Positions 35,313 through 47,903 of a stretch of 64,000 nucleotides of DNA are shown in pieces (within the stretch, counting starts at the first letter, position 1; every line of letters begins with the position of its first letter). The translations under genes and the position numbers were made by a program. The notes under the pieces were generated by a model that saw only the letters and a list, made by a program, of their open reading frames with translations, searched no databases and was not told the origin of the DNA. Source of the DNA: a virus. Location of the stretch: positions 64,001 through 128,000 of the IMG/VR virus record IMGVR_UViG_3300026488_000011, one strand, 5' to 3'.

Positions 35313-35337
35313 AGGTGCAGGGAGTTACCCTGCACCT
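35313..35337 (-). terminator. Terminator after nvRNAP exon 3
   Basis: AGGTGCAGGG...CCCTGCACCT hairpin with a U-run on the minus strand; the stop codon is in the loop. Confidence 0.8.
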
Positions 35338-35546
35338 AACAGCTTTCTAGCTACTGGATCGTCTTCAGGACTACGGCTATCTTCTCTCATGTGTGTAAAG
35401 TTAGATAGCGTAGCCACTGTGGTAGACGGTATATATAAGTTTTTATTAACCTTACCGTCTATGTCTATGATGTTGTAATGTGGAGAAAACTTCTTAGCTA
35501 TCTCCGCCATCTTATTATCTAGTAATATAGTAGCATTCATTTCGTC
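35325..35546 (-). CDS. rpoC: Non-virion RNAP beta' subunit (gp55-like), exon 3
   Basis: Begins GAC GAA ATG (DEMNATILLD...) immediately after the terminal G of intron 2 (35547) and completes the DFDGD motif. Confidence 0.88.
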   Translation of the reverse strand, partial: DEMNATILLDNKMAEIAKKFSPHYNIIDIDGKVNKNLYIPSTTVATLSNFTHMREDSRSPEDDPVARKLLGAG

Positions 35547-35962
35547 CGTGATGTTCAGACAGGGTCGTTACTCCTGTCCCGCGGCATTACCCGCAGCTCT
35601 AGCTTTCACTAGAGACCAGACTATACCATCACCCTTTACCATAGGATCAATTATCCCTTAGGCAGTCGGGTGCCCTCCGTTTCGAACTCACTTGAGTCCT
35701 ACTCTACTCGGTTTTCACTATTCCGTTTCCAGAATAGCTATCCTTTCGACAGTCGTTGAACACACACCATATCCATTTGGACGTAGGTGCTTCGCTGCGG
35801 ATCGTCCTATACTAACGAGCTTTTTACTATACCATGGAGCACTCGCCTCCCCATGCCCTTATCCGGTTTCCCGGATAAGTTAGTACTCATTAGCTTCAGG
35901 ATGTCTCCGCAATTAGGAGGGTTTTTAACTAGAGTATTTCTACTCTAGGACAGCCAGTATTA
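35547..35962 (-). ncRNA. Group I intron 2 (416 nt, no ORF)
   Basis: P AATTGCGGAGAC (35903-35914), Q GATCCGCAGC (35794-35803), R GTTCAACGACTG (35750-35761), S TGGTATAGTCTG (35617-35628). The IGS GCTGTC pairs with exon GACGGT with a U.G pair at the splice site; terminal G present. Confidence 0.9.
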
Positions 35963-35971
35963 ACCGTCGAA
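35963..35971 (-). CDS. rpoC: Non-virion RNAP beta' subunit, 9-nt micro-exon 2 (Phe-Asp-Gly)
   Basis: TTC GAC GGT lies between the terminal G of intron 1 and the start of intron 2 and restores NGD-FDG-DEM in frame. Confidence 0.88.
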
Positions 35972-36383
35972 CGAGTACAATGTACTCGGACCATATCTTC
36001 ATCCCTTACCATAGGATAGATCATCCCTTAGGTAGTCGGATGCTCCCCGTTTCCCATCCAATTAGATGGTACCCTACTCGCTTTACCAGTAGTTACACTA
36101 CCAGCGGGCAGTCTTACCTTACCCTCACTATTACTATACCTTTCGGTATAGTCGCAGCTTTCGGTGGCCTCTGAACACATCCCATATCTATAAAAGACGT
36201 AGGGACTTCGCTGCGTCGATTCCGCAACACTATGACGTTTTTACCATACTCGTCGCTTCCATTACTGGGACGAGTATCATACTCGGTTTCCCGGTATGAG
36301 TGGTAGTCATAGCTTTTACACGGTTCCCGCAGTTAGGGGAGTATTTTGCTAGAGTATTACTACTCTAGGGTGACCTCGACCCG

Positions 36384-37673
36384 TTAAACTTTAACAACTC
36401 TTTTAATACCCAGAGAATCTATTATAGGTACATTTTTATCTTTTATGCAGTTAATGATGGTCTTTTGACTTACGTTAAAATGTCGAGCTGTCTCTCGTAT
36501 GCCCTTGAATTCCTTCTTTGTCCCGTCTTTAAATTCTACTAATATAGAAGTACTCCTAGAATAGTTGACTAAATTATCCATACACCACTTACCATTTTTC
36601 CATAACACCCAATCATTTATACGGTAACATTTGTCATCGTTTAGAAATTTTGCTAACTTAGCTCCGCTAATCTTTAAAAACTTTTTAGCTGGCTTTATAC
36701 CATTAAATTCTTTTACTTCACCTGTAACTAAATTTTTAACTTTCACCGGTTCTTTAGATTGTTTTTTATGTAGTTTAAATAATTCATATCTTTCATGGTC
36801 CTTTAAAACATCCAATAACATAGAATCCTTGTATAGGTAACCTTTTTCACCAGTCAATTTCCTCCACAATTTAGTCTTGTTATTATAGAACTCCAATTCG
36901 CCAGATTCTTTATTTCTAACGATTATACCCCATGGTAAATCTATTAAACTAGGATCCATAAGATACTGCCTATAACTATTGTCGTCTGCTAAATAATATA
37001 ATTCATCAGGTTCTGTCTCTGAATCAGAGGTCTTGCTAAACCAAGACGGGGTCTTCTTGTCAGATATAGTAGATTTACTTAACCCTAATATTTTACTCAC
37101 CCTGTTTAAATTACTACAAAACCAGATCCTTTTATCTAATACATTTGTTAACACATACATACCTAGCTTTAAGTTTGTTCTTGTATGTACGTTAGCAGAA
37201 TTTTGTTCCATGGTAGTCCAATGAATATTTTCTAAACGATTGTCCTTTTTATTGTTATTTTTATGGTCTACGATATAATCTGTAACAAAATCATTATTCG
37301 GCAACCATGCATATGCCATAAGGCGGTGTACTGTCGTTCTGTAGTGAGAATGTGTTTGTGTTGTGATTATGACACAATTATAACCGCTGCAATCAGATGT
37401 TTTTAATTTGGTGTTTGTTATTAAGTCATAAACATTTCCTACCTTATCTACAGCATACCTAGGCGCTATTGGGACAACAGCATATTCTTTCTTTGTTCTC
37501 ACACTGCAAAATACAACAGGCCTATCAAACATTGGTATATGTACTACTTCATACGGACCATTGCCTTGTCTTATCCTGGCAGGAACGTACTTTATGATGT
37601 TCTTTAACCACTCTAAACCTTTTGGGTATTTGTAATTCTCTGGGTATCTTATAAATTGTTTTTTGATCTTCAT
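36384..37673 (-). CDS. Intron-encoded HNH homing endonuclease (NUMOD4-HNH plus NUMOD1/IENR1-like repeats)
   Basis: YAVDKVGNV, VHRLMAYAWL, VDHKNNNKKDNRLENIHW, and three C-terminal F.SI..A...LG-type modules. Confidence 0.9.
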   Translation of the reverse strand: MKIKKQFIRYPENYKYPKGLEWLKNIIKYVPARIRQGNGPYEVVHIPMFDRPVVFCSVRTKKEYAVVPIAPRYAVDKVGNVYDLITNTKLKTSDCSGYNCVIITTQTHSHYRTTVHRLMAYAWLPNNDFVTDYIVDHKNNNKKDNRLENIHWTTMEQNSANVHTRTNLKLGMYVLTNVLDKRIWFCSNLNRVSKILGLSKSTISDKKTPSWFSKTSDSETEPDELYYLADDNSYRQYLMDPSLIDLPWGIIVRNKESGELEFYNNKTKLWRKLTGEKGYLYKDSMLLDVLKDHERYELFKLHKKQSKEPVKVKNLVTGEVKEFNGIKPAKKFLKISGAKLAKFLNDDKCYRINDWVLWKNGKWCMDNLVNYSRSTSILVEFKDGTKKEFKGIRETARHFNVSQKTIINCIKDKNVPIIDSLGIKRVVKV

Positions 37674-37676
37674 TCT

Positions 37677-37710
37677 TAACTCCTTTTTAAGTACTCAGTA
37701 TAAGGAGTTA
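37677..37710 (-). promoter_or_regulatory. Hairpin sequestering the endonuclease SD sequence
   Basis: TAACTCCTT...AAGGAGTTA stem; the SD AAGGAG is in the 3' arm just upstream of ATG 37673. Confidence 0.7.
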
Positions 37711-37749
37711 TTGTTTTAAAAAATGCTGTGTTTAACGGGTCTATAACGC

Positions 37750-38964
37750 ATCACCGTTTGGCGCTTTGATAGTCATCATGTTTACACCGATGGTCTTATC
37801 TTCGATATTAGTTTTGAATTTAGTTATATAATAGAGTTGACTAGACCCCATTAACAAGCTAGGATTCCTGTTAAATATTACAGGGATTCCTTTATAAGGA
37901 GATTCTTCTATCAACTCGTTCAGAATTTCTTCTATTACTGGATAATGCTTGTTGACGGCTTCAAAAACTAGGTTAGAAGCTTCTTTATACGTGTATCCTC
38001 TTTTTAAGAGCTTATTTATAATATGCGGTCTAAATGCAGTAGGACCTATTATCCATGGTACATGCAACACATCATAATCTTCGCTGGTAGGGAGTGAGGT
38101 GATTACCGCTCTGAAGGTAAAATGACTACGAGTACCATAGATATGTTTTCTCACCATTCCTTTTTTACCGGATAGCTTTTCTTTACTATATTTGATAAAG
38201 AGCTTAGCTATCCCGGAGATTATTTTACCTACACCATTCTCTACCTTTTTACTGTAAGGATCCATGTTTGCTAACTTTACTGCTAATAGCGATATATCGA
38301 TAACGTCTCCTAACATAGTAGTGGTATAAGCATCCTTCCCTGTTACTTCCATTACAAATAGTCTCTTATTCACTAACGGTAAATAATCTACTAGGAGTTT
38401 ATCCCTATTCCTTTTCCATTCCTCTAGCAATCTCTTGGCTTTCTTATCCTTTTTATTGGATTTAAACACAGAATTATTAGCTATATAGAGCAATATTTTC
38501 TCTATGTTATTTATAACGTTTAGATACCCCCTACCTCCTATTATATTTTTGATAGAATGGAGATATGTAGGTATCTTAGGAGGATTATAAGAAGTATCTG
38601 CTAACCAGCGTAGCCCGTCTATTCTTTTACCTAATATAGATGTGAGTTGATTCCAGAAATGCGGATTTAGGAATTTTAAATCATCCCTGAACTTCTCTAT
38701 CCATAGTAGCGGCTTTATTATGTCAAAAGCTTTCACTACAGAAGTACCGCATTTAGGACATGTCTGACCGAGTCTCCATGCACCTTTGAAATACCCGCAC
38801 TCGCATTGTGGTATGATGGAAATTTCGTCCTCGTATTGAGTAAACAACAGCTTTTTCATTTTCTCAGGTTCGACGTCGGTTATTTTAAAGTTGTTGAGAA
38901 TTAACTTACGATCTGTTTCGTGGAAATATTGATTTAGATCATTATAGTCTTGTACTATTGGCAT
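37750..38964 (-). CDS. rpoC: Non-virion RNAP beta' subunit (phiKZ gp55-like), exon 1; predicted spliced product 481 aa
   Basis: Zn-binding motif CECG...CPKC, SGKKGMVRKHIYGTR, FRAVITS and FNRNPSL. Ends at APNGD, immediately before the expected FDGD. Confidence 0.9.
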
Positions 38965-41984: not shown

Positions 41985-44900
41985 TCATTTACTAAAATAC
42001 ATCTCAGCAACTTTTTTACTTAGATGCTCCAGTAGGCCAGCAGTGGTACCCATTAGACTAGGACTGTTTACTATCCTAGCATATATAGCTCTAGCACTAA
42101 ACAATACCTCTATCTCTTCACCGTTTTCTCCTACAATAGGATAACTGAATATATCTCCTACTGTGGTTTTTAACTGGTTAGCTATAATTGCTTTATCACC
42201 AGTACCCATATTCGATTCCACTAAGATATAGAACTTAATTTCTACCTTACCTTCATCCAGTGGCTTACCTTCTATAGAATAACTGCTATCTACTCTACCT
42301 GTGAATTTCCTATTAGTCTTAGGATCTATTAAATTCTTCTCTGTTTCTTCTACTAATTTTCTAATAGATTCAGACAGTTGTTCTTTTTCACAATTATAGA
42401 ACACCTGTATCTTAATTATCTTACCTTTTATCTTAGCTTTAGGTGTAGTCTTAACAAAACCTTGTAAAATGTCCAGAGCCTCTTCTGTAAGTTTACCATC
42501 GTCCATTATTCCAGTATTAATCATTAATAACGCTGTAGATGGCTCTACGCTATCTCCTACATTTAATACGTTTACTATTTCTTCAGTAGCATCCAGGACT
42601 ATGCTTCTGGATTTCACATATTGTATTTTAGCCTTATTTGCTAACTTGCTGCTTATAGCACAACTATCCTCATACGTTTCATTAAGCTCCATTAAAGCTG
42701 TTCTCACTGTTAAGTATGGCTTATAAGTTACCTTAGTAGGATCGAAGATATCTGGTTCGAAGAAACTACTATCGTAATAAATTACATCTCCTTCTTTTAC
42801 CTTTTGATCTTTAACCACATTAGGTTTTAAAACATGTAAGTAACTAGTATTGGATTCTTCTTTACTAGTCCAATTCGAATAAACAAAAGTTTCTTTTTTA
42901 CCGCTTTTGTATTCTACCACTATTTTATTCCTACTTACTTGTTTTACTATACCATCTTTTTTAGCGAATCCTATAAACTTTTTATCTAACCTGTAAGGAA
43001 GTACTGAATCATACCCTGTTCTAACTGGATATACAGATCCGTTTATTAATGGAAGTACATGTGAATTTTGTACGTTAATAAAGTTAAGTCTCTTTGAATC
43101 ATCGGTAGTGCTAAACGGTGCTAGAAGAGCACTGGTACTTAATACATTAGCAAAATCTATTTCCTTTAACTCACCTTTCATTCCTCTTAGGTTTTTAATC
43201 ACAGGATTCGCTGATAGATACGCTGAAATACCTACGTCACCTGAGTCCTTATGTCCTTCAGATATCACTCCTATATCATCAGGATGTAATTCTCTAGTAC
43301 CCTTACTCATGGATTCTTTTTTTCTACCTTGGAATCCTATATAGGTAACGTCTTCTCTCTCTTTTAAGTAGATTAGAGGATTTGTATCGTCTAATAAAAT
43401 ACTAGCACTATCTTCGTTTAAGAGTCTCCAGACAATATATGGATCTAAGTTCAATCTACTCCTACCAAAGAACTCTTCATTCTTTTTCTGTCTTATCGCT
43501 TCTACCATTTTGGAATACACCATCTGAGGTACTTTCTCATAGCCTCTAATCACATACCCCTTCATGCTTTGTGGATGTAGATAGAAATCATTTACTAACA
43601 TCTCATTAGCCCTCAGTAAGAGTCCTGTAAACGTAGTAGGTTCTTTCATTTGTTTCAATACGTTGGCAGTTACTGGATCGACATAGAGATCATCTAACAA
43701 TTGTATCTCTGTAATACTGTTTAAAGGTAAGCCTATGTCTTTAAAAAACGCTAACATCATTTCGCGACTGTTAAAAGTGTCTAGCGGTAGATCTTTTGTT
43801 ATCTTAGGAAAGTGATTCAAACCTTCAAACAACATGATGTGTTCTGGTTTATCCCAATACACTACCAATGTCTCAAACTTAGTTTTAAATACGGTAGCAT
43901 TCTCCGGTTTTAGATTTTTTCTACCCTCCAGAATATCATATTTTACTCCTAGCATCTTTAGTAAGTTTTCTAAGCCTAGATAATAAGACAACATAAACAC
44001 TGTCGGAATATAGTTTTTATAAATTTTAACTAAACTATACTCATTCACGAGTTTAGTTTTGTCTATCGGGACTATGTTGTAGAAGTTATCTAACTTCTTC
44101 ATAGTCTTATCATAGACATATAAGTCATTACTCTGATTTATGAATAGAGGTTTATCATTTCTACTACCACATAAAACATACTTACCGTTTTCTTCTAATT
44201 TTTCTAATTCGATACCTAATTTGTCTGCGAATAAGTCCCTATTAGGATAATCAAAATCAAACAACATATCCTTATACACGTATGATTTAATAAATCTCAT
44301 ATGCAGAGAATAGACTTCTGGTAGTATGACATCAGGTACGTGTACTTCTCCTAACACTAAGTTTTTTATCTTACCAGATTCTTGTAACTTTAATAATTGC
44401 TTTTTTAGACTATATCCTGCGTTTAATTTCATGTATGGGGCTTTATCTATAAACAGTTTGCCATATGCACTACTTAATGCTACTCTATTATAAGCGATCT
44501 TTTTTATTGGCAAGTCGGATCTTTGTTTTCTAAGCACATAACCGTTACCGGACATTTTATACTGTCCGTCTTCATCTATCTTAGGAATTTTAAACTTTAC
44601 CTTATGAGTACCTTTGTTTATATCCGTGAATACAATCTCATATTCTTCATAATCTCCTAAGATGTTTCCGTTTTCTACTCTATTAAGTTCTTTTATTACC
44701 ATCCCTCCTCTCTGAAGAGAGAATATTGTACGAGCTATATCTTTCTTAAGTACCTCTCTTATGTACTTTCTGTCGAAAGCTCCTATTGTATCCTCCAATG
44801 CTTTTTTATCAGGCATTATCTTTACATCAGGTAGTTTTTTATCTTTTTCAGTTATTTCTACTTCTTTATCAGATATAGTTAAGTAATCTTTTAACGGTTT

Positions 44901-46199
44901 TCCATCTCCGAATACATCTGATTCCAACACTTCCTCGATACTTCTCAATAACTTAGTTTTCTTTTTCTCTACTCCGTTGATTTCGGTCAAATGCTCAATT
45001 GTTCTTATTGTATCTTTTACTACATCATCATCAGACTTTATTATTTCCTCAATGTCGTTATATTTTGGTTTAGTCTTACTTAATCCGGTTATCTCATCTT
45101 CTTCTGGTTCCATTTTTATAATGTCTTCTATGTCTATTGTATCATCTTCTGTTTCTACTACTTGCTCATCTATTTCGTCTACTACTATGCTGGTGTTTGA
45201 ATCTATTACACCTTTCTTCTTTGTTTTACTAATAGGTAAAATATCTTCAACTGTTTCTTTGTATGTACCTTTTTCTATTTCGTTTTCCTTAAATCCAGGA
45301 AGTAAGTATTCACTATGCAATGTAAAATGTAATAACTTAAAAAGTTTATCGGGATCGTATTTAGTACTATTCTCTAATGTATCATAATCTTTATCGAACT
45401 TTAATAGCTCTGCTAGGTTAACCACTAATCCTTTCTCGTCTAGAACAAAAACAAAGTTTATCTTAGATAGATCCTTCAGCTTTTCTACTTTCTGTAAAGG
45501 TGTCTTTTCTTTTAATTCTTTATATAGGACTCTGAATGTATCCAATAAAGACAATCTTTTAAAATCGAAAAACGTCTTTATAAGCTGTAGATCATACTCA
45601 GTTTTATCTAAATATTTTTTTATCAGTTGTCTACCATAGAAGACTTCTGGTAACTCTAAGATAACGAAATGATGTGGTCCTAATCCTGTACCAAAATCAA
45701 TTCTATTAAGTTTTAGAATTCTGTCTATAATAGTCCTGCTAGTCACTCTGTATTTTTCATACTCATGTTTAGGATGGTTTTTCCATCTGTATATGGTGTC
45801 CAAAACTGAGTAGTTTATTATTAAATCCCTATCTTTTAATATCTTAGGATTCTTCTCTAAAGCATTATAGACTTTCTTACTTAACTCAGTCTTAAAGTCT
45901 GGATAGTCCTTATTGAACTTACTGGCGAAACTAGATTCGTTAATTACTGACTTAGTCACCTTTTCAGGTTTATCGGAATATTCCAATACATTAACCACGA
46001 TACCCTTACTTATGTTTCTGAAATAAGGTAAAGTCCTGTTAGGATACAAAGTGTTGTTTTCTTTATAGAAATGAAGTATTGTTCCCTGAGGAAATACTAT
46101 ATCGCTTAAATTCAAAACTTTAGGATATATAAAATCATTAGCCTTTCTCAATCCTAGTTTTTTGTACCATAATCTATATTTTTTTTTCCTAGTACTCAT
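41985..46199 (-). CDS. rpoB: Virion RNA polymerase beta subunit (phiKZ gp178-like)
   Basis: 1404 aa. C-terminal beta motifs HPDDIGVISE, DSGDVG, YEDSCAIS and GDKAIIANQLKT; long phiKZ-type N-terminal region. Confidence 0.9.
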   Translation of the reverse strand: MSTRKKKYRLWYKKLGLRKANDFIYPKVLNLSDIVFPQGTILHFYKENNTLYPNRTLPYFRNISKGIVVNVLEYSDKPEKVTKSVINESSFASKFNKDYPDFKTELSKKVYNALEKNPKILKDRDLIINYSVLDTIYRWKNHPKHEYEKYRVTSRTIIDRILKLNRIDFGTGLGPHHFVILELPEVFYGRQLIKKYLDKTEYDLQLIKTFFDFKRLSLLDTFRVLYKELKEKTPLQKVEKLKDLSKINFVFVLDEKGLVVNLAELLKFDKDYDTLENSTKYDPDKLFKLLHFTLHSEYLLPGFKENEIEKGTYKETVEDILPISKTKKKGVIDSNTSIVVDEIDEQVVETEDDTIDIEDIIKMEPEEDEITGLSKTKPKYNDIEEIIKSDDDVVKDTIRTIEHLTEINGVEKKKTKLLRSIEEVLESDVFGDGKPLKDYLTISDKEVEITEKDKKLPDVKIMPDKKALEDTIGAFDRKYIREVLKKDIARTIFSLQRGGMVIKELNRVENGNILGDYEEYEIVFTDINKGTHKVKFKIPKIDEDGQYKMSGNGYVLRKQRSDLPIKKIAYNRVALSSAYGKLFIDKAPYMKLNAGYSLKKQLLKLQESGKIKNLVLGEVHVPDVILPEVYSLHMRFIKSYVYKDMLFDFDYPNRDLFADKLGIELEKLEENGKYVLCGSRNDKPLFINQSNDLYVYDKTMKKLDNFYNIVPIDKTKLVNEYSLVKIYKNYIPTVFMLSYYLGLENLLKMLGVKYDILEGRKNLKPENATVFKTKFETLVVYWDKPEHIMLFEGLNHFPKITKDLPLDTFNSREMMLAFFKDIGLPLNSITEIQLLDDLYVDPVTANVLKQMKEPTTFTGLLLRANEMLVNDFYLHPQSMKGYVIRGYEKVPQMVYSKMVEAIRQKKNEEFFGRSRLNLDPYIVWRLLNEDSASILLDDTNPLIYLKEREDVTYIGFQGRKKESMSKGTRELHPDDIGVISEGHKDSGDVGISAYLSANPVIKNLRGMKGELKEIDFANVLSTSALLAPFSTTDDSKRLNFINVQNSHVLPLINGSVYPVRTGYDSVLPYRLDKKFIGFAKKDGIVKQVSRNKIVVEYKSGKKETFVYSNWTSKEESNTSYLHVLKPNVVKDQKVKEGDVIYYDSSFFEPDIFDPTKVTYKPYLTVRTALMELNETYEDSCAISSKLANKAKIQYVKSRSIVLDATEEIVNVLNVGDSVEPSTALLMINTGIMDDGKLTEEALDILQGFVKTTPKAKIKGKIIKIQVFYNCEKEQLSESIRKLVEETEKNLIDPKTNRKFTGRVDSSYSIEGKPLDEGKVEIKFYILVESNMGTGDKAIIANQLKTTVGDIFSYPIVGENGEEIEVLFSARAIYARIVNSPSLMGTTAGLLEHLSKKVAEMYFSK

Positions 46200-46277
46200 G
46201 CTTTACTCCTTAATACGTTAATTTCAATTCAACGACCTATTAAAAAAGAAAACTAATCACAGAGTAGATAACTACAT

Positions 46278-47903
46278 CTACTCTGTAAACATCTTTAATG
46301 CTAAATCGGAAATATCGTTACTATTGGAATAAACTAATTTTCCAGTTGGGTCTAGGTAAAATTTAGTACTATTAAGAAACTCCATTAACTCTTTCCTGGA
46401 TTCATCTTCATATACGATTGTAGCCGACATTTTATCACCATCAAAGTCAGCTCCTAGTCTCCCTAGGAAAGCTACGTTAGGGGAAAGAGACAAGAAAGGT
46501 TTACTATCAAATCTAGGATACTCGTAAAGTTTAATAGGTTGTGGTTGATGCAATCCTTTATAGAGGACTTCTCTACCTTCTATAGTAGTTTTTAGATAAA
46601 ACTTGGTAGGATATACCGAACCCAATCCTGTAATAGGATATCTTGTTACGAAACCTGGGTAATTATCAGCAATATCAAAAATGCTAAGATATACTAACTC
46701 CATATATGTCATAGGTCTAATATACTTCTTATCATAACCTACAGGCATTAATCTAACATCGTCAATTATCTCTACTACATTTCCATCGTCATAAACCAGG
46801 AACATATACTTACCGTCTACTACAATAGGAGCCTTTTGTATATCTTCCTGTATTAATTTGTTAATGGATTTCTCTAACCCATCGTCTGTTACCCATTGGG
46901 ATCTAGTCTTGTTACTGACCTCCACTAATTCTTTTTCAAACGTCTTAGGATTATAGAGATATGCGTTATTGCTCTCTGGATCAAATACGTTGTTCAGAAA
47001 TTTAGTTCTTATGTGGTAAATAGCTATAGGAGTAATACCTTTAGTAAACTGATATAACCCTATTACTGTTTGATCAAATCTGGGTCTATTAGGCTGGTGA
47101 TTGACTTTAATCTTTATAGGTATAGCTGTAATTACGTTTCTGGTACCGTACATTACTGTACGCTTTACCCACTTGCCTTGTATAAATCCTTCTTTACCGG
47201 ATAGTATATTTTCTATATACTCGTAAATCTCTGTTACTTTCTTTTCTAGTCTGGCTTTAATAGGATCTATGAATTTAGAACCTAATGCTTCCGAACCAAA
47301 TTTCTTCGCTGTGTTGGAGATAGTTAATAAATCTCTATATAGATTATTTATTTCATCTTCCAATACCTTTCCATTAGGGAGGACTTGTCTGTCCCTCATA
47401 CCTGCTGGTAATACTAACCATTTATCTACTAATACATCTTTTGCTTTATACTTCTTGATAAATTCAATTCTTTTCTTTCTTATTTCTGAATTAGTTTCTC
47501 TAAATTTTATCTCGTCAAAATGTTTTATAAAAAAAGAAAAACCTGTTTCTCCATCTGCCTTTGTAGCTGGTTTAAAATTCTTCTCTTCATCATCCCAGAT
47601 AGCATATTTAGTACCCTCTATAATTCCCTTATACAAGCTCTCTAATTTACATAAATGTCTGTAAACCAATGGATGTATTATATCCGTACCTAAAGAGATA
47701 TATCCAAATCTTTCTAGTCTTTCTTTGGATCCTACTGGTCCAAATATCTCAGTAGAGAATAAACCATCCTTATGGAAGACAGTAGAGTTTTGCTCATATA
47801 CGTCTTTAGTTTTTACTTCTCCTAACCTTTTTACTATATCGGTAGTCAGGATTAAAATTTCTATATTAAATGGTATTTTTGGTCTAAATACGTTTTCAGA
47901 CAT
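46278..47903 (-). CDS. rpoC: Virion RNA polymerase beta' N-terminal subunit (phiKZ gp180-like)
   Basis: 541 aa; DGLFSTEIFG, VTRYP and the intact catalytic motif LGADFDGDKM. Confidence 0.92.
   Translation of the reverse strand: MSENVFRPKIPFNIEILILTTDIVKRLGEVKTKDVYEQNSTVFHKDGLFSTEIFGPVGSKERLERFGYISLGTDIIHPLVYRHLCKLESLYKGIIEGTKYAIWDDEEKNFKPATKADGETGFSFFIKHFDEIKFRETNSEIRKKRIEFIKKYKAKDVLVDKWLVLPAGMRDRQVLPNGKVLEDEINNLYRDLLTISNTAKKFGSEALGSKFIDPIKARLEKKVTEIYEYIENILSGKEGFIQGKWVKRTVMYGTRNVITAIPIKIKVNHQPNRPRFDQTVIGLYQFTKGITPIAIYHIRTKFLNNVFDPESNNAYLYNPKTFEKELVEVSNKTRSQWVTDDGLEKSINKLIQEDIQKAPIVVDGKYMFLVYDDGNVVEIIDDVRLMPVGYDKKYIRPMTYMELVYLSIFDIADNYPGFVTRYPITGLGSVYPTKFYLKTTIEGREVLYKGLHQPQPIKLYEYPRFDSKPFLSLSPNVAFLGRLGADFDGDKMSATIVYEDESRKELMEFLNSTKFYLDPTGKLVYSNSNDISDLALKMFTE

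Follow-up and report, generated by a model that had tools for sequence, protein, structure and literature searches.

The stretch of DNA analysed here (the window, 64,000 nucleotides (nt) in all) belongs to the IMG/VR virus record IMGVR_UViG_3300026488_000011, which is 185,491 bp long and has direct terminal repeats; the window covers bases 64001-128000. On its minus strand lies a gene of the type that encodes gp55, the beta'-N subunit of the non-virion RNA polymerase (nvRNAP), in phage phiKZ. The codons for the Mg-binding N-x-DFDGD loop of this gene are very probably interrupted by two group I introns placed only 9 bp apart, and three exons would be spliced to yield a protein of 481 amino acids (aa). 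The parts of the gene, in the order in which they would be transcribed, are as follows.

37750..38964, minus strand: exon 1, 405 codons of the gp55-like nvRNAP beta'-N gene, ending in N-G-D
35972..37749, minus strand: intron 1, group I, 1,778 nt, with an endonuclease open reading frame (ORF) in the P1 loop
36369..36380, minus strand: internal guide of intron 1, GUCGAG-GUCACC, with the P1 part at 36369-36374 and the P10 part at 36375-36380
35963..35971, minus strand: micro-exon TTCGACGGT (F-D-G), 9 nt, filling positions 419-421 of the phrog_2987 profile
35547..35962, minus strand: intron 2, group I, 416 nt, without an ORF
35325..35546, minus strand: exon 3, D-E-M-N..., 73 codons plus stop

The original prediction had placed exons, introns, the 9-nt exon and the terminal G of each intron at these positions, all correctly for the minus strand.

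Exon 1 terminates in ...GCG CCA AAC GGT GAT at 37750 and is followed in frame by gcg tta tag, a stop two codons beyond 37750 that ends the unspliced ORF at 407 aa. It matches phrog_2987 ('RNA polymerase beta subunit') with an E-value of 2.1e-96 over profile positions 1-418 of 478, and its closest solved structure is the phiKZ nvRNAP chain 7OGP_A (E 1.9e-54). In PDB entry 7OGP, chain A is named PHIKZ055 + PHIKZ056.1, i.e., it is joined from two ORFs. Judged from these matches, the interrupted gene encodes a phiKZ gp55-type nvRNAP beta'-N subunit. Exon 3 begins GAC GAA ATG right after the final G of intron 2 (35547) and matches profile positions 422-475, leaving three profile positions absent between exon 1 and exon 3; a tblastn comparison of exon 3 with the C-termini of full-length homologues gave an E-value of 1.6e-13. 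Within the 2,203 nt that intervene between exons 1 and 3, TTCGACGGT is the sole 9-mer coding for F/Y-D-G (0.24 expected from the window's own frequency), and it sits exactly between the two ribozyme matches described below, with a G before it and a T at its end. The Asp codons of DFDGD are split over the three exons, GAT lying in exon 1, one GAC in the micro-exon and the other GAC in exon 3.

Joining the three exons in silico gives a 481-aa product reading APNGDFDGDEMN, and the junction in the mature mRNA is predicted to read AACGGTGAT-TTCGACGGT-GACGAAATG. Together with the codon check, this joining confirms the earlier proposal that each Asp of the motif comes from a different exon of a predicted 481-aa product. 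The joined, exon-skipped and unspliced forms were scored with a hidden Markov model built from 38 full-length homologues. The form with exon 1, micro-exon and exon 3 received 647.0 bits and aligned ungapped across kapNaDfDGDelN, the exon-skipped form, aligned with a gap of three residues, received 626.5 bits, and the unspliced ORF received 567.4 bits. A full-length, colinear match of the phrog_2987 type with an intact N-x-DFDGD loop was obtained only after the three exons had been joined in silico.

Both interruptions match the group I intron model RF00028, and these are the only group I matches in the whole genome. The match at intron 2 (35972-35597) covers the full model (1-253) at 79.3 bits (E 1.1e-19), above the gathering score of 50. 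The core of intron 1 (36405-35967) scored 41.8 bits (E 2e-9) when the 461 nt from 36420 to 35960 were searched alone. Intron 1 is preceded by U (37750) and its last base is G (35972). Its P1 would pair GGUGAU of exon 1 (37755-37750) with GUCACC (36374-36369), and the P1 of intron 2, a short hairpin with a folding energy of -10.4 kcal/mol, would pair GACGGU of the micro-exon with GCUGUC (35954-35949); both helices end in a U.G pair. Directly 5' of the P1 guide of intron 1, the position expected for P10, GUCGAG (36380-36375) is complementary to UUCGAC of the micro-exon. These pairings agree with the earlier claim that P1 helices with a U.G pair lie at both 5' splice sites and give NGD/FDG/DEM (slashes mark splice points). 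The guide duplexes of intron 1 have calculated energies of -8.3 (P1) and -7.8 kcal/mol (P10), compared with -3.8 kcal/mol for an exon 3 control; overall, the proposed partners range from -7.5 to -8.3 kcal/mol and mismatched partners from -3.2 to -4.7 kcal/mol. Bases 1-6 of the micro-exon would serve the P10 of intron 1 and bases 4-9 the P1 of intron 2, and the two helices overlap on the GAC of the micro-exon.

A consensus structure was computed with RNAalifold from five introns, namely introns 1 and 2, their copies in a related contig (L010) and the intron of a second relative (L011), both of which are described below. Of its 96 pairs, 41 show compensatory double changes, as in P3 (ACUCCCC/GGGGAG vs CCCUCC/GGAGGG). 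Helices P2-P8 with compensatory changes are common to introns 1 and 2, and P7, read from the alignment, pairs as GGCCA/UGGUC in the first intron and as GACUG/UAGUC in the second. The cores of the two introns are 75% identical over 343 aligned nt. Both introns display the hallmarks of group I, namely the terminal U.G of P1, the final intron G and a compensated P3-P8 core with P7. Weak Rfam matches to CRISPR-DR44 and mcrA at the locus fell below threshold and were dismissed.

Several observations weigh against two functional introns at these positions. The group I assignment originally made for both introns was upheld by the model for intron 2 but not for intron 1, which stays below the gathering score of RF00028 whether its core is searched alone or in the genome search (28.2 bits), and whose core was missed when 4.2 kb were searched in one go. 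The P1 of intron 1 must form across 1.37 kb, and intron 2 has no evident P10. Composition-preserving shuffles of the guides match the observed energies in 4-11% of trials per helix. Finally, an exact search of metagenome contigs for the spliced or intron-less junction found none, a result that neither supports nor refutes splicing. The low score of intron 1 can be ascribed to the 1.37-kb ORF, by which the core is separated from the exonic 5' strand of P1, and intron 1 is likely to be still a group I ribozyme because of its homology to intron 2 and its compensated P2-P8 pairs. We also distrust negative RF00028 results on long stretches as a filter effect, the 10-kb L010 locus having returned nothing and a 1-kb search of it 74.7 bits. 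Since 4-11% of shuffles match the observed energies, a single helix is weak evidence, and it is the position-specific combination of helices that counts. The layout as a whole is beyond chance, because it combines a unique and precisely placed 9-mer, three absent profile positions that this 9-mer fills, and conservation at 67% exon identity.

Further features of intron 1 and of the end of the gene are listed here.

37730..37741, minus strand: 5' strand GACCCGUUAAAC of a predicted 12-bp helix, perfectly complementary to its partner at 36378-36389
37671..37725, minus strand: hairpin pairing the endonuclease Shine-Dalgarno AAGGAGUU and start codon, from the minimum free energy (MFE) fold of ViennaRNA
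36384..37673, minus strand: intron-encoded HNH/NUMOD1 homing-endonuclease ORF, 429 aa
35313..35337, minus strand: intrinsic-terminator-like hairpin and T run, with a 10-bp stem including 7 G-C pairs

The endonuclease ORF exceeds the Pfam cut-offs for both HNH_3 (33.3 bits, cut-off 24.8) and NUMOD1 (38.6 bits, cut-off 22.8), and matches phrog_59 with an E-value of 2.7e-23. Between the window and L010 it differs by 105 synonymous and 59 non-synonymous codon changes, which suggests that the endonuclease is under purifying selection. The 12-bp helix (37741-37730 with 36389-36378) would close the 1.3-kb ORF-bearing loop of P1, and L010 retains 11 of its 12 pairs. Because the final three pairs share bases with the P10 guide, the helix should open on P10 formation. 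The hairpin at the start of the ORF, which pairs AACUCCUU with AAGGAGUU, belongs to the MFE fold in both phages, with z -1.0 in the window and z -3.3 in L010 (5367-5420); it may limit how much endonuclease is translated while the RNA is still unspliced. At the other end of the gene, the terminator-like hairpin (35337-35313) overlaps the stop codon of exon 3 together with the codons just before it.

The locus was compared by megablast with 50,697 phage records without a match, and therefore there is no cultured close relative for comparison. An exact search of viral contigs for the junctions of intron 1, micro-exon and intron 2 returned a single contig, L010/L015 (IMGVR_UViG_3300026382_000006), which has the identical layout and the identical 9-nt exon. 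At the nucleotide level, this contig and the window are 67.2% (exon 1) and 66.2% (exon 3) identical in the outer exons, compared with 84.7% in the endonuclease ORF, 93.9% in the intron 1 core and 95.7% in intron 2. Because the introns are far more alike than the exons, the intron pair is either much younger or much more constrained than the host genes, and the lower divergence of the ORF would favour a recent horizontal transfer of both introns together. The L010 contig (G010) also carries an extra group I intron elsewhere (847-1115, 100.2 bits), with no counterpart in the window's genome.

Other members of the clade hold only one of the introns, or neither. L011 has the first intron only, which lies at GAT/TAT, contains an HNH ORF and is succeeded by uninterrupted TATGACGGCGACGAAATG; the guide of this intron, UAUAUG-GUCACC, co-varies with the altered 3' exon UAUGAC (P10). 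L073 has a single intron at GGT/GAT, preceded by contiguous GCAGATTTTGATGGT, and intron-less relatives read NGDFDGDE. With these and the two-intron forms, all four allele states (neither, either alone, both) are represented in the clade, and both predicted junctions are supported by natural alleles. Further relatives have exons of other lengths. In L012/L016/L017, an 11-nt exon, TTGATGGTGAT, lies between group I matches of 45.7 and 41.6 bits (L012 6217-7536), with splice points displaced by 1 and 3 nt relative to those of the window; the upstream intron of L012 has no ORF beyond one of 63 aa, which shows a weak DUF723 match and is possibly the remnant of an endonuclease gene. L019 (7098-10850) has three group I introns, one at RN/P and two around a 12-nt exon, TTTGATGGAGAT (FDGD), and L024 has two introns around a 126-nt exon. 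In L030 (7245-10345) a 3.1-kb interruption follows DFDG, and no RF00028 match was found in it; the contigs of L013 and L014 stop short of the downstream exon. Among the best 120 homologue clusters, 49 are full length and 71 (about 59%) are shortened, ending at at least 8 distinct points at or near the catalytic motif or the NRNP motif about 40 residues upstream. Since well over half of the closest relatives are called truncated, pipelines that lack models for group I introns and mini-exons are likely to under-report this essential gene.

The same arrangement recurs well outside this clade. A distant 269-kb phiKZ-like contig (L051, 7204-7948), with 29% protein identity, reads NAD/TTCGACGGT/DALNG, the micro-exon being flanked by two ORF-less introns that score 76.8 and 80.9 bits, both above the Rfam gathering score; the P1 of its intron A was not definable by eye. 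A maximum-likelihood tree was built from 17 introns, 4 from the phiKZ clade (including both of L051) and 13 from the window's clade, and the two groups separate with 97/97 support. Since the tree parts them, the identical D/FDG/D layout would have at least two origins. The tree lacks resolution inside the window's clade and does not settle whether introns 1 and 2 are sisters; intron 1 is nearest the L011 intron, which occupies the same site, and the nearest non-orthologue of intron 2 is intron 1. Contrary to what had originally been supposed, the arrangement is not unique: the D/FDG/D layout is present in two other contigs, and versions with 11-13-nt exons occur in three more lineages, including the cultured Escherichia phage Goslar discussed below.

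The genome holds no second phrog_2987 gene, which agrees with the expectation that no intact gp55-like copy exists elsewhere. The only other beta'-like gene (46278-47903, minus strand, 541 aa) belongs to a different family (phrog_2986, E 6.8e-180), has an intact GADFDGD motif and adjoins a 1,404-aa beta-like gene (phrog_3148). Neither gene of this pair (41985-47903, minus strand) is interrupted, and together they presumably form a second polymerase. The phrog_2986 gene does not render the interrupted gp55-like gene redundant. By analogy with phiKZ biology, middle/late transcription may, as was originally proposed, depend on both splicing events.

Taken together, we consider it very likely that two group I introns interrupt the catalytic-loop codons and that their removal joins three exons into one polymerase subunit. 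From the anatomy, homology and conservation observed here, self-splicing could be envisaged as follows. Intron 1, with its HNH/NUMOD1 endonuclease in the P1 loop, would have inserted after GAU, and the ORF-less intron 2 after GGU. For each ribozyme, the 5' splice site would be set by a P1 of 6 bp whose terminal pair is U.G, and intron 1 would align its 3' exon through a 6-bp P10 with bases 1-6 of the micro-exon. Both introns most likely move together with the 9-nt exon, as one unit, through co-conversion initiated by the single endonuclease, which we infer to be active.

The overlap of the intron 1 P10 and the intron 2 P1 on three bases also invites a different reading, in which both ribozymes compete for the micro-exon GAC that they share, and exon skipping or partial splicing is substantial and possibly regulated. 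Joining the 5' site of intron 1 to the 3' site of intron 2 would produce NGD-DEM, which lacks two of the catalytic Asp and yet remains in frame and still reaches 626.5 bits. However, the micro-exon and both guides are conserved in L010 and the exon recurs in L051, which argues for selection on inclusion, and it is established for the NADFDGD motif that a polymerase without FDG is unable to bind the catalytic Mg. We therefore regard substantial skipping as improbable. Still less probable is that the introns no longer splice, and that the locus is either a decaying pseudogene or a split gene expressed as separate polypeptides (407 aa, and a 71-aa ORF from the ATG at 35540). Gene callers give truncated ORFs only, here and in relatives, and an ATG does lie three codons into exon 3, but no Shine-Dalgarno precedes it, exon 3 still fits the family profile, and compensated helices are kept in the cores of both ribozymes. 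Moreover, the genome encodes no other member of the family, the DFDGD loop of this gene would not exist without splicing, and the homologous interrupted gene of phiKZ yields one polypeptide (7OGP chain A).

The 75% identity of the two cores over 343 nt makes a duplication inside one element imaginable, in which case the intervening 2.2 kb would be a single composite intron (a twintron, or one ribozyme with a large insert) and TTCGACGGT would not be an exon. This appears the least credible of the alternatives, since two complete and separately scoring RF00028 matches abut the 9-mer, removal as one unit would delete three invariant residues, and single-intron alleles are known at each of the two sites (L011 and L073).

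Under the preferred reading of two separate introns around a genuine micro-exon, the gene in the window exemplifies the recurrent insertion of closely packed group I introns into catalytic-loop codons, something little described in phages. We would go further only tentatively. It is conceivable, though rather doubtful, that the 9-nt exon is near a functional minimum, doubling as partner of P10 and of P1, and that this forces a sequential order of splicing and makes polymerase production reliant on two coupled ribozymes. Equally tentatively, the intron pair might be a composite mobile element that arose independently in at least two jumbo-phage clades, the DFDGD codons being a hot spot that introns can saturate. 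The gene family provides a natural series (no intron, either, both; exons of 9, 11, 12, 13 and 126 nt) with which to ask how tightly two ribozymes can be packed, whether the sharing of bases by P10 and P1 imposes an order of splicing, and whether an ORF-less intron hitch-hikes on its neighbour's endonuclease or immunises against it in co-infection.

Tandem group I introns and mini-exons both have precedents, which tells against the uniqueness originally supposed. In mitochondria, mini-exons below 4 codons in length 'occur regularly' between introns (MFannot, PMC10352661), and placozoan cox1 has a 1-nt exon between two group IB introns (PMC5436844). These likewise lie between two group I introns and were spotted through conserved residues absent from an alignment; they differ in belonging to organelle genes and in that no shared endonuclease or mobility context has been described for them. 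In a viral RNA polymerase gene, polr2a of Bodo saltans virus, endonuclease-bearing 'parental' and ORF-less 'offspring' group I introns occur together, with splicing confirmed by reverse transcription PCR, and the offspring introns were proposed to depend on the parental endonuclease (Deeg, Chow & Suttle 2018, PMC5871332). That system differs in being a giant virus of a eukaryote with another polymerase lineage and other intron families.

Among jumbo phages, gp210 of PhiPA3 is an HNH endonuclease in a putative group I intron of an RNA polymerase subunit gene, which cuts the intron-less allele of a co-infecting phage and acts in phage competition (Birkholz et al. 2024, PMC11620839); there, a different polymerase gene is involved, with a single intron and no micro-exon. 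In the passages searched of a 2025 review of nucleus-forming phages, intron endonucleases are discussed, and tandem introns or micro-exons are not. In Escherichia phage Goslar (NC_048170; gp247, HNH gp186 and gp185), the homologous gene adjoins the nuclear-shell gene. The Goslar record (167400-171100) gives a truncated coding sequence (CDS), one Intron_gpI, an HNH gene and a small CDS, and no spliced gene is annotated. By reading, exon 1 ends in GAC TT, and a 13-nt piece, CGACGGTGACGCT, with a G before it and a T at its end, completes DFDGDA. It appears to be an unannotated micro-exon, with splice points other than those of the window and 13 nt instead of 9.

The most direct comparison is with phiKZ itself, in which gp55/gp56/gp56.1 represents the same gene family with the same catalytic motif targeted, and introns are known in gp55 and gp180 along with the endonucleases gp56, gp72 and gp179 (PMC11512511). 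PhiKZ has one intron in this gene, at N/A, 6 nt upstream of the intron 1 site of the window, and a phiKZ-like record (L003, OP310983) has an intron at AAT/GCG GAT TTT GAC GGC GAT. Unlike phiKZ, the window phage has two introns, at D/F and G/D, with a 9-nt exon between them, and in the intron tree the phiKZ-clade introns form a branch separate from those of the window (97/97).

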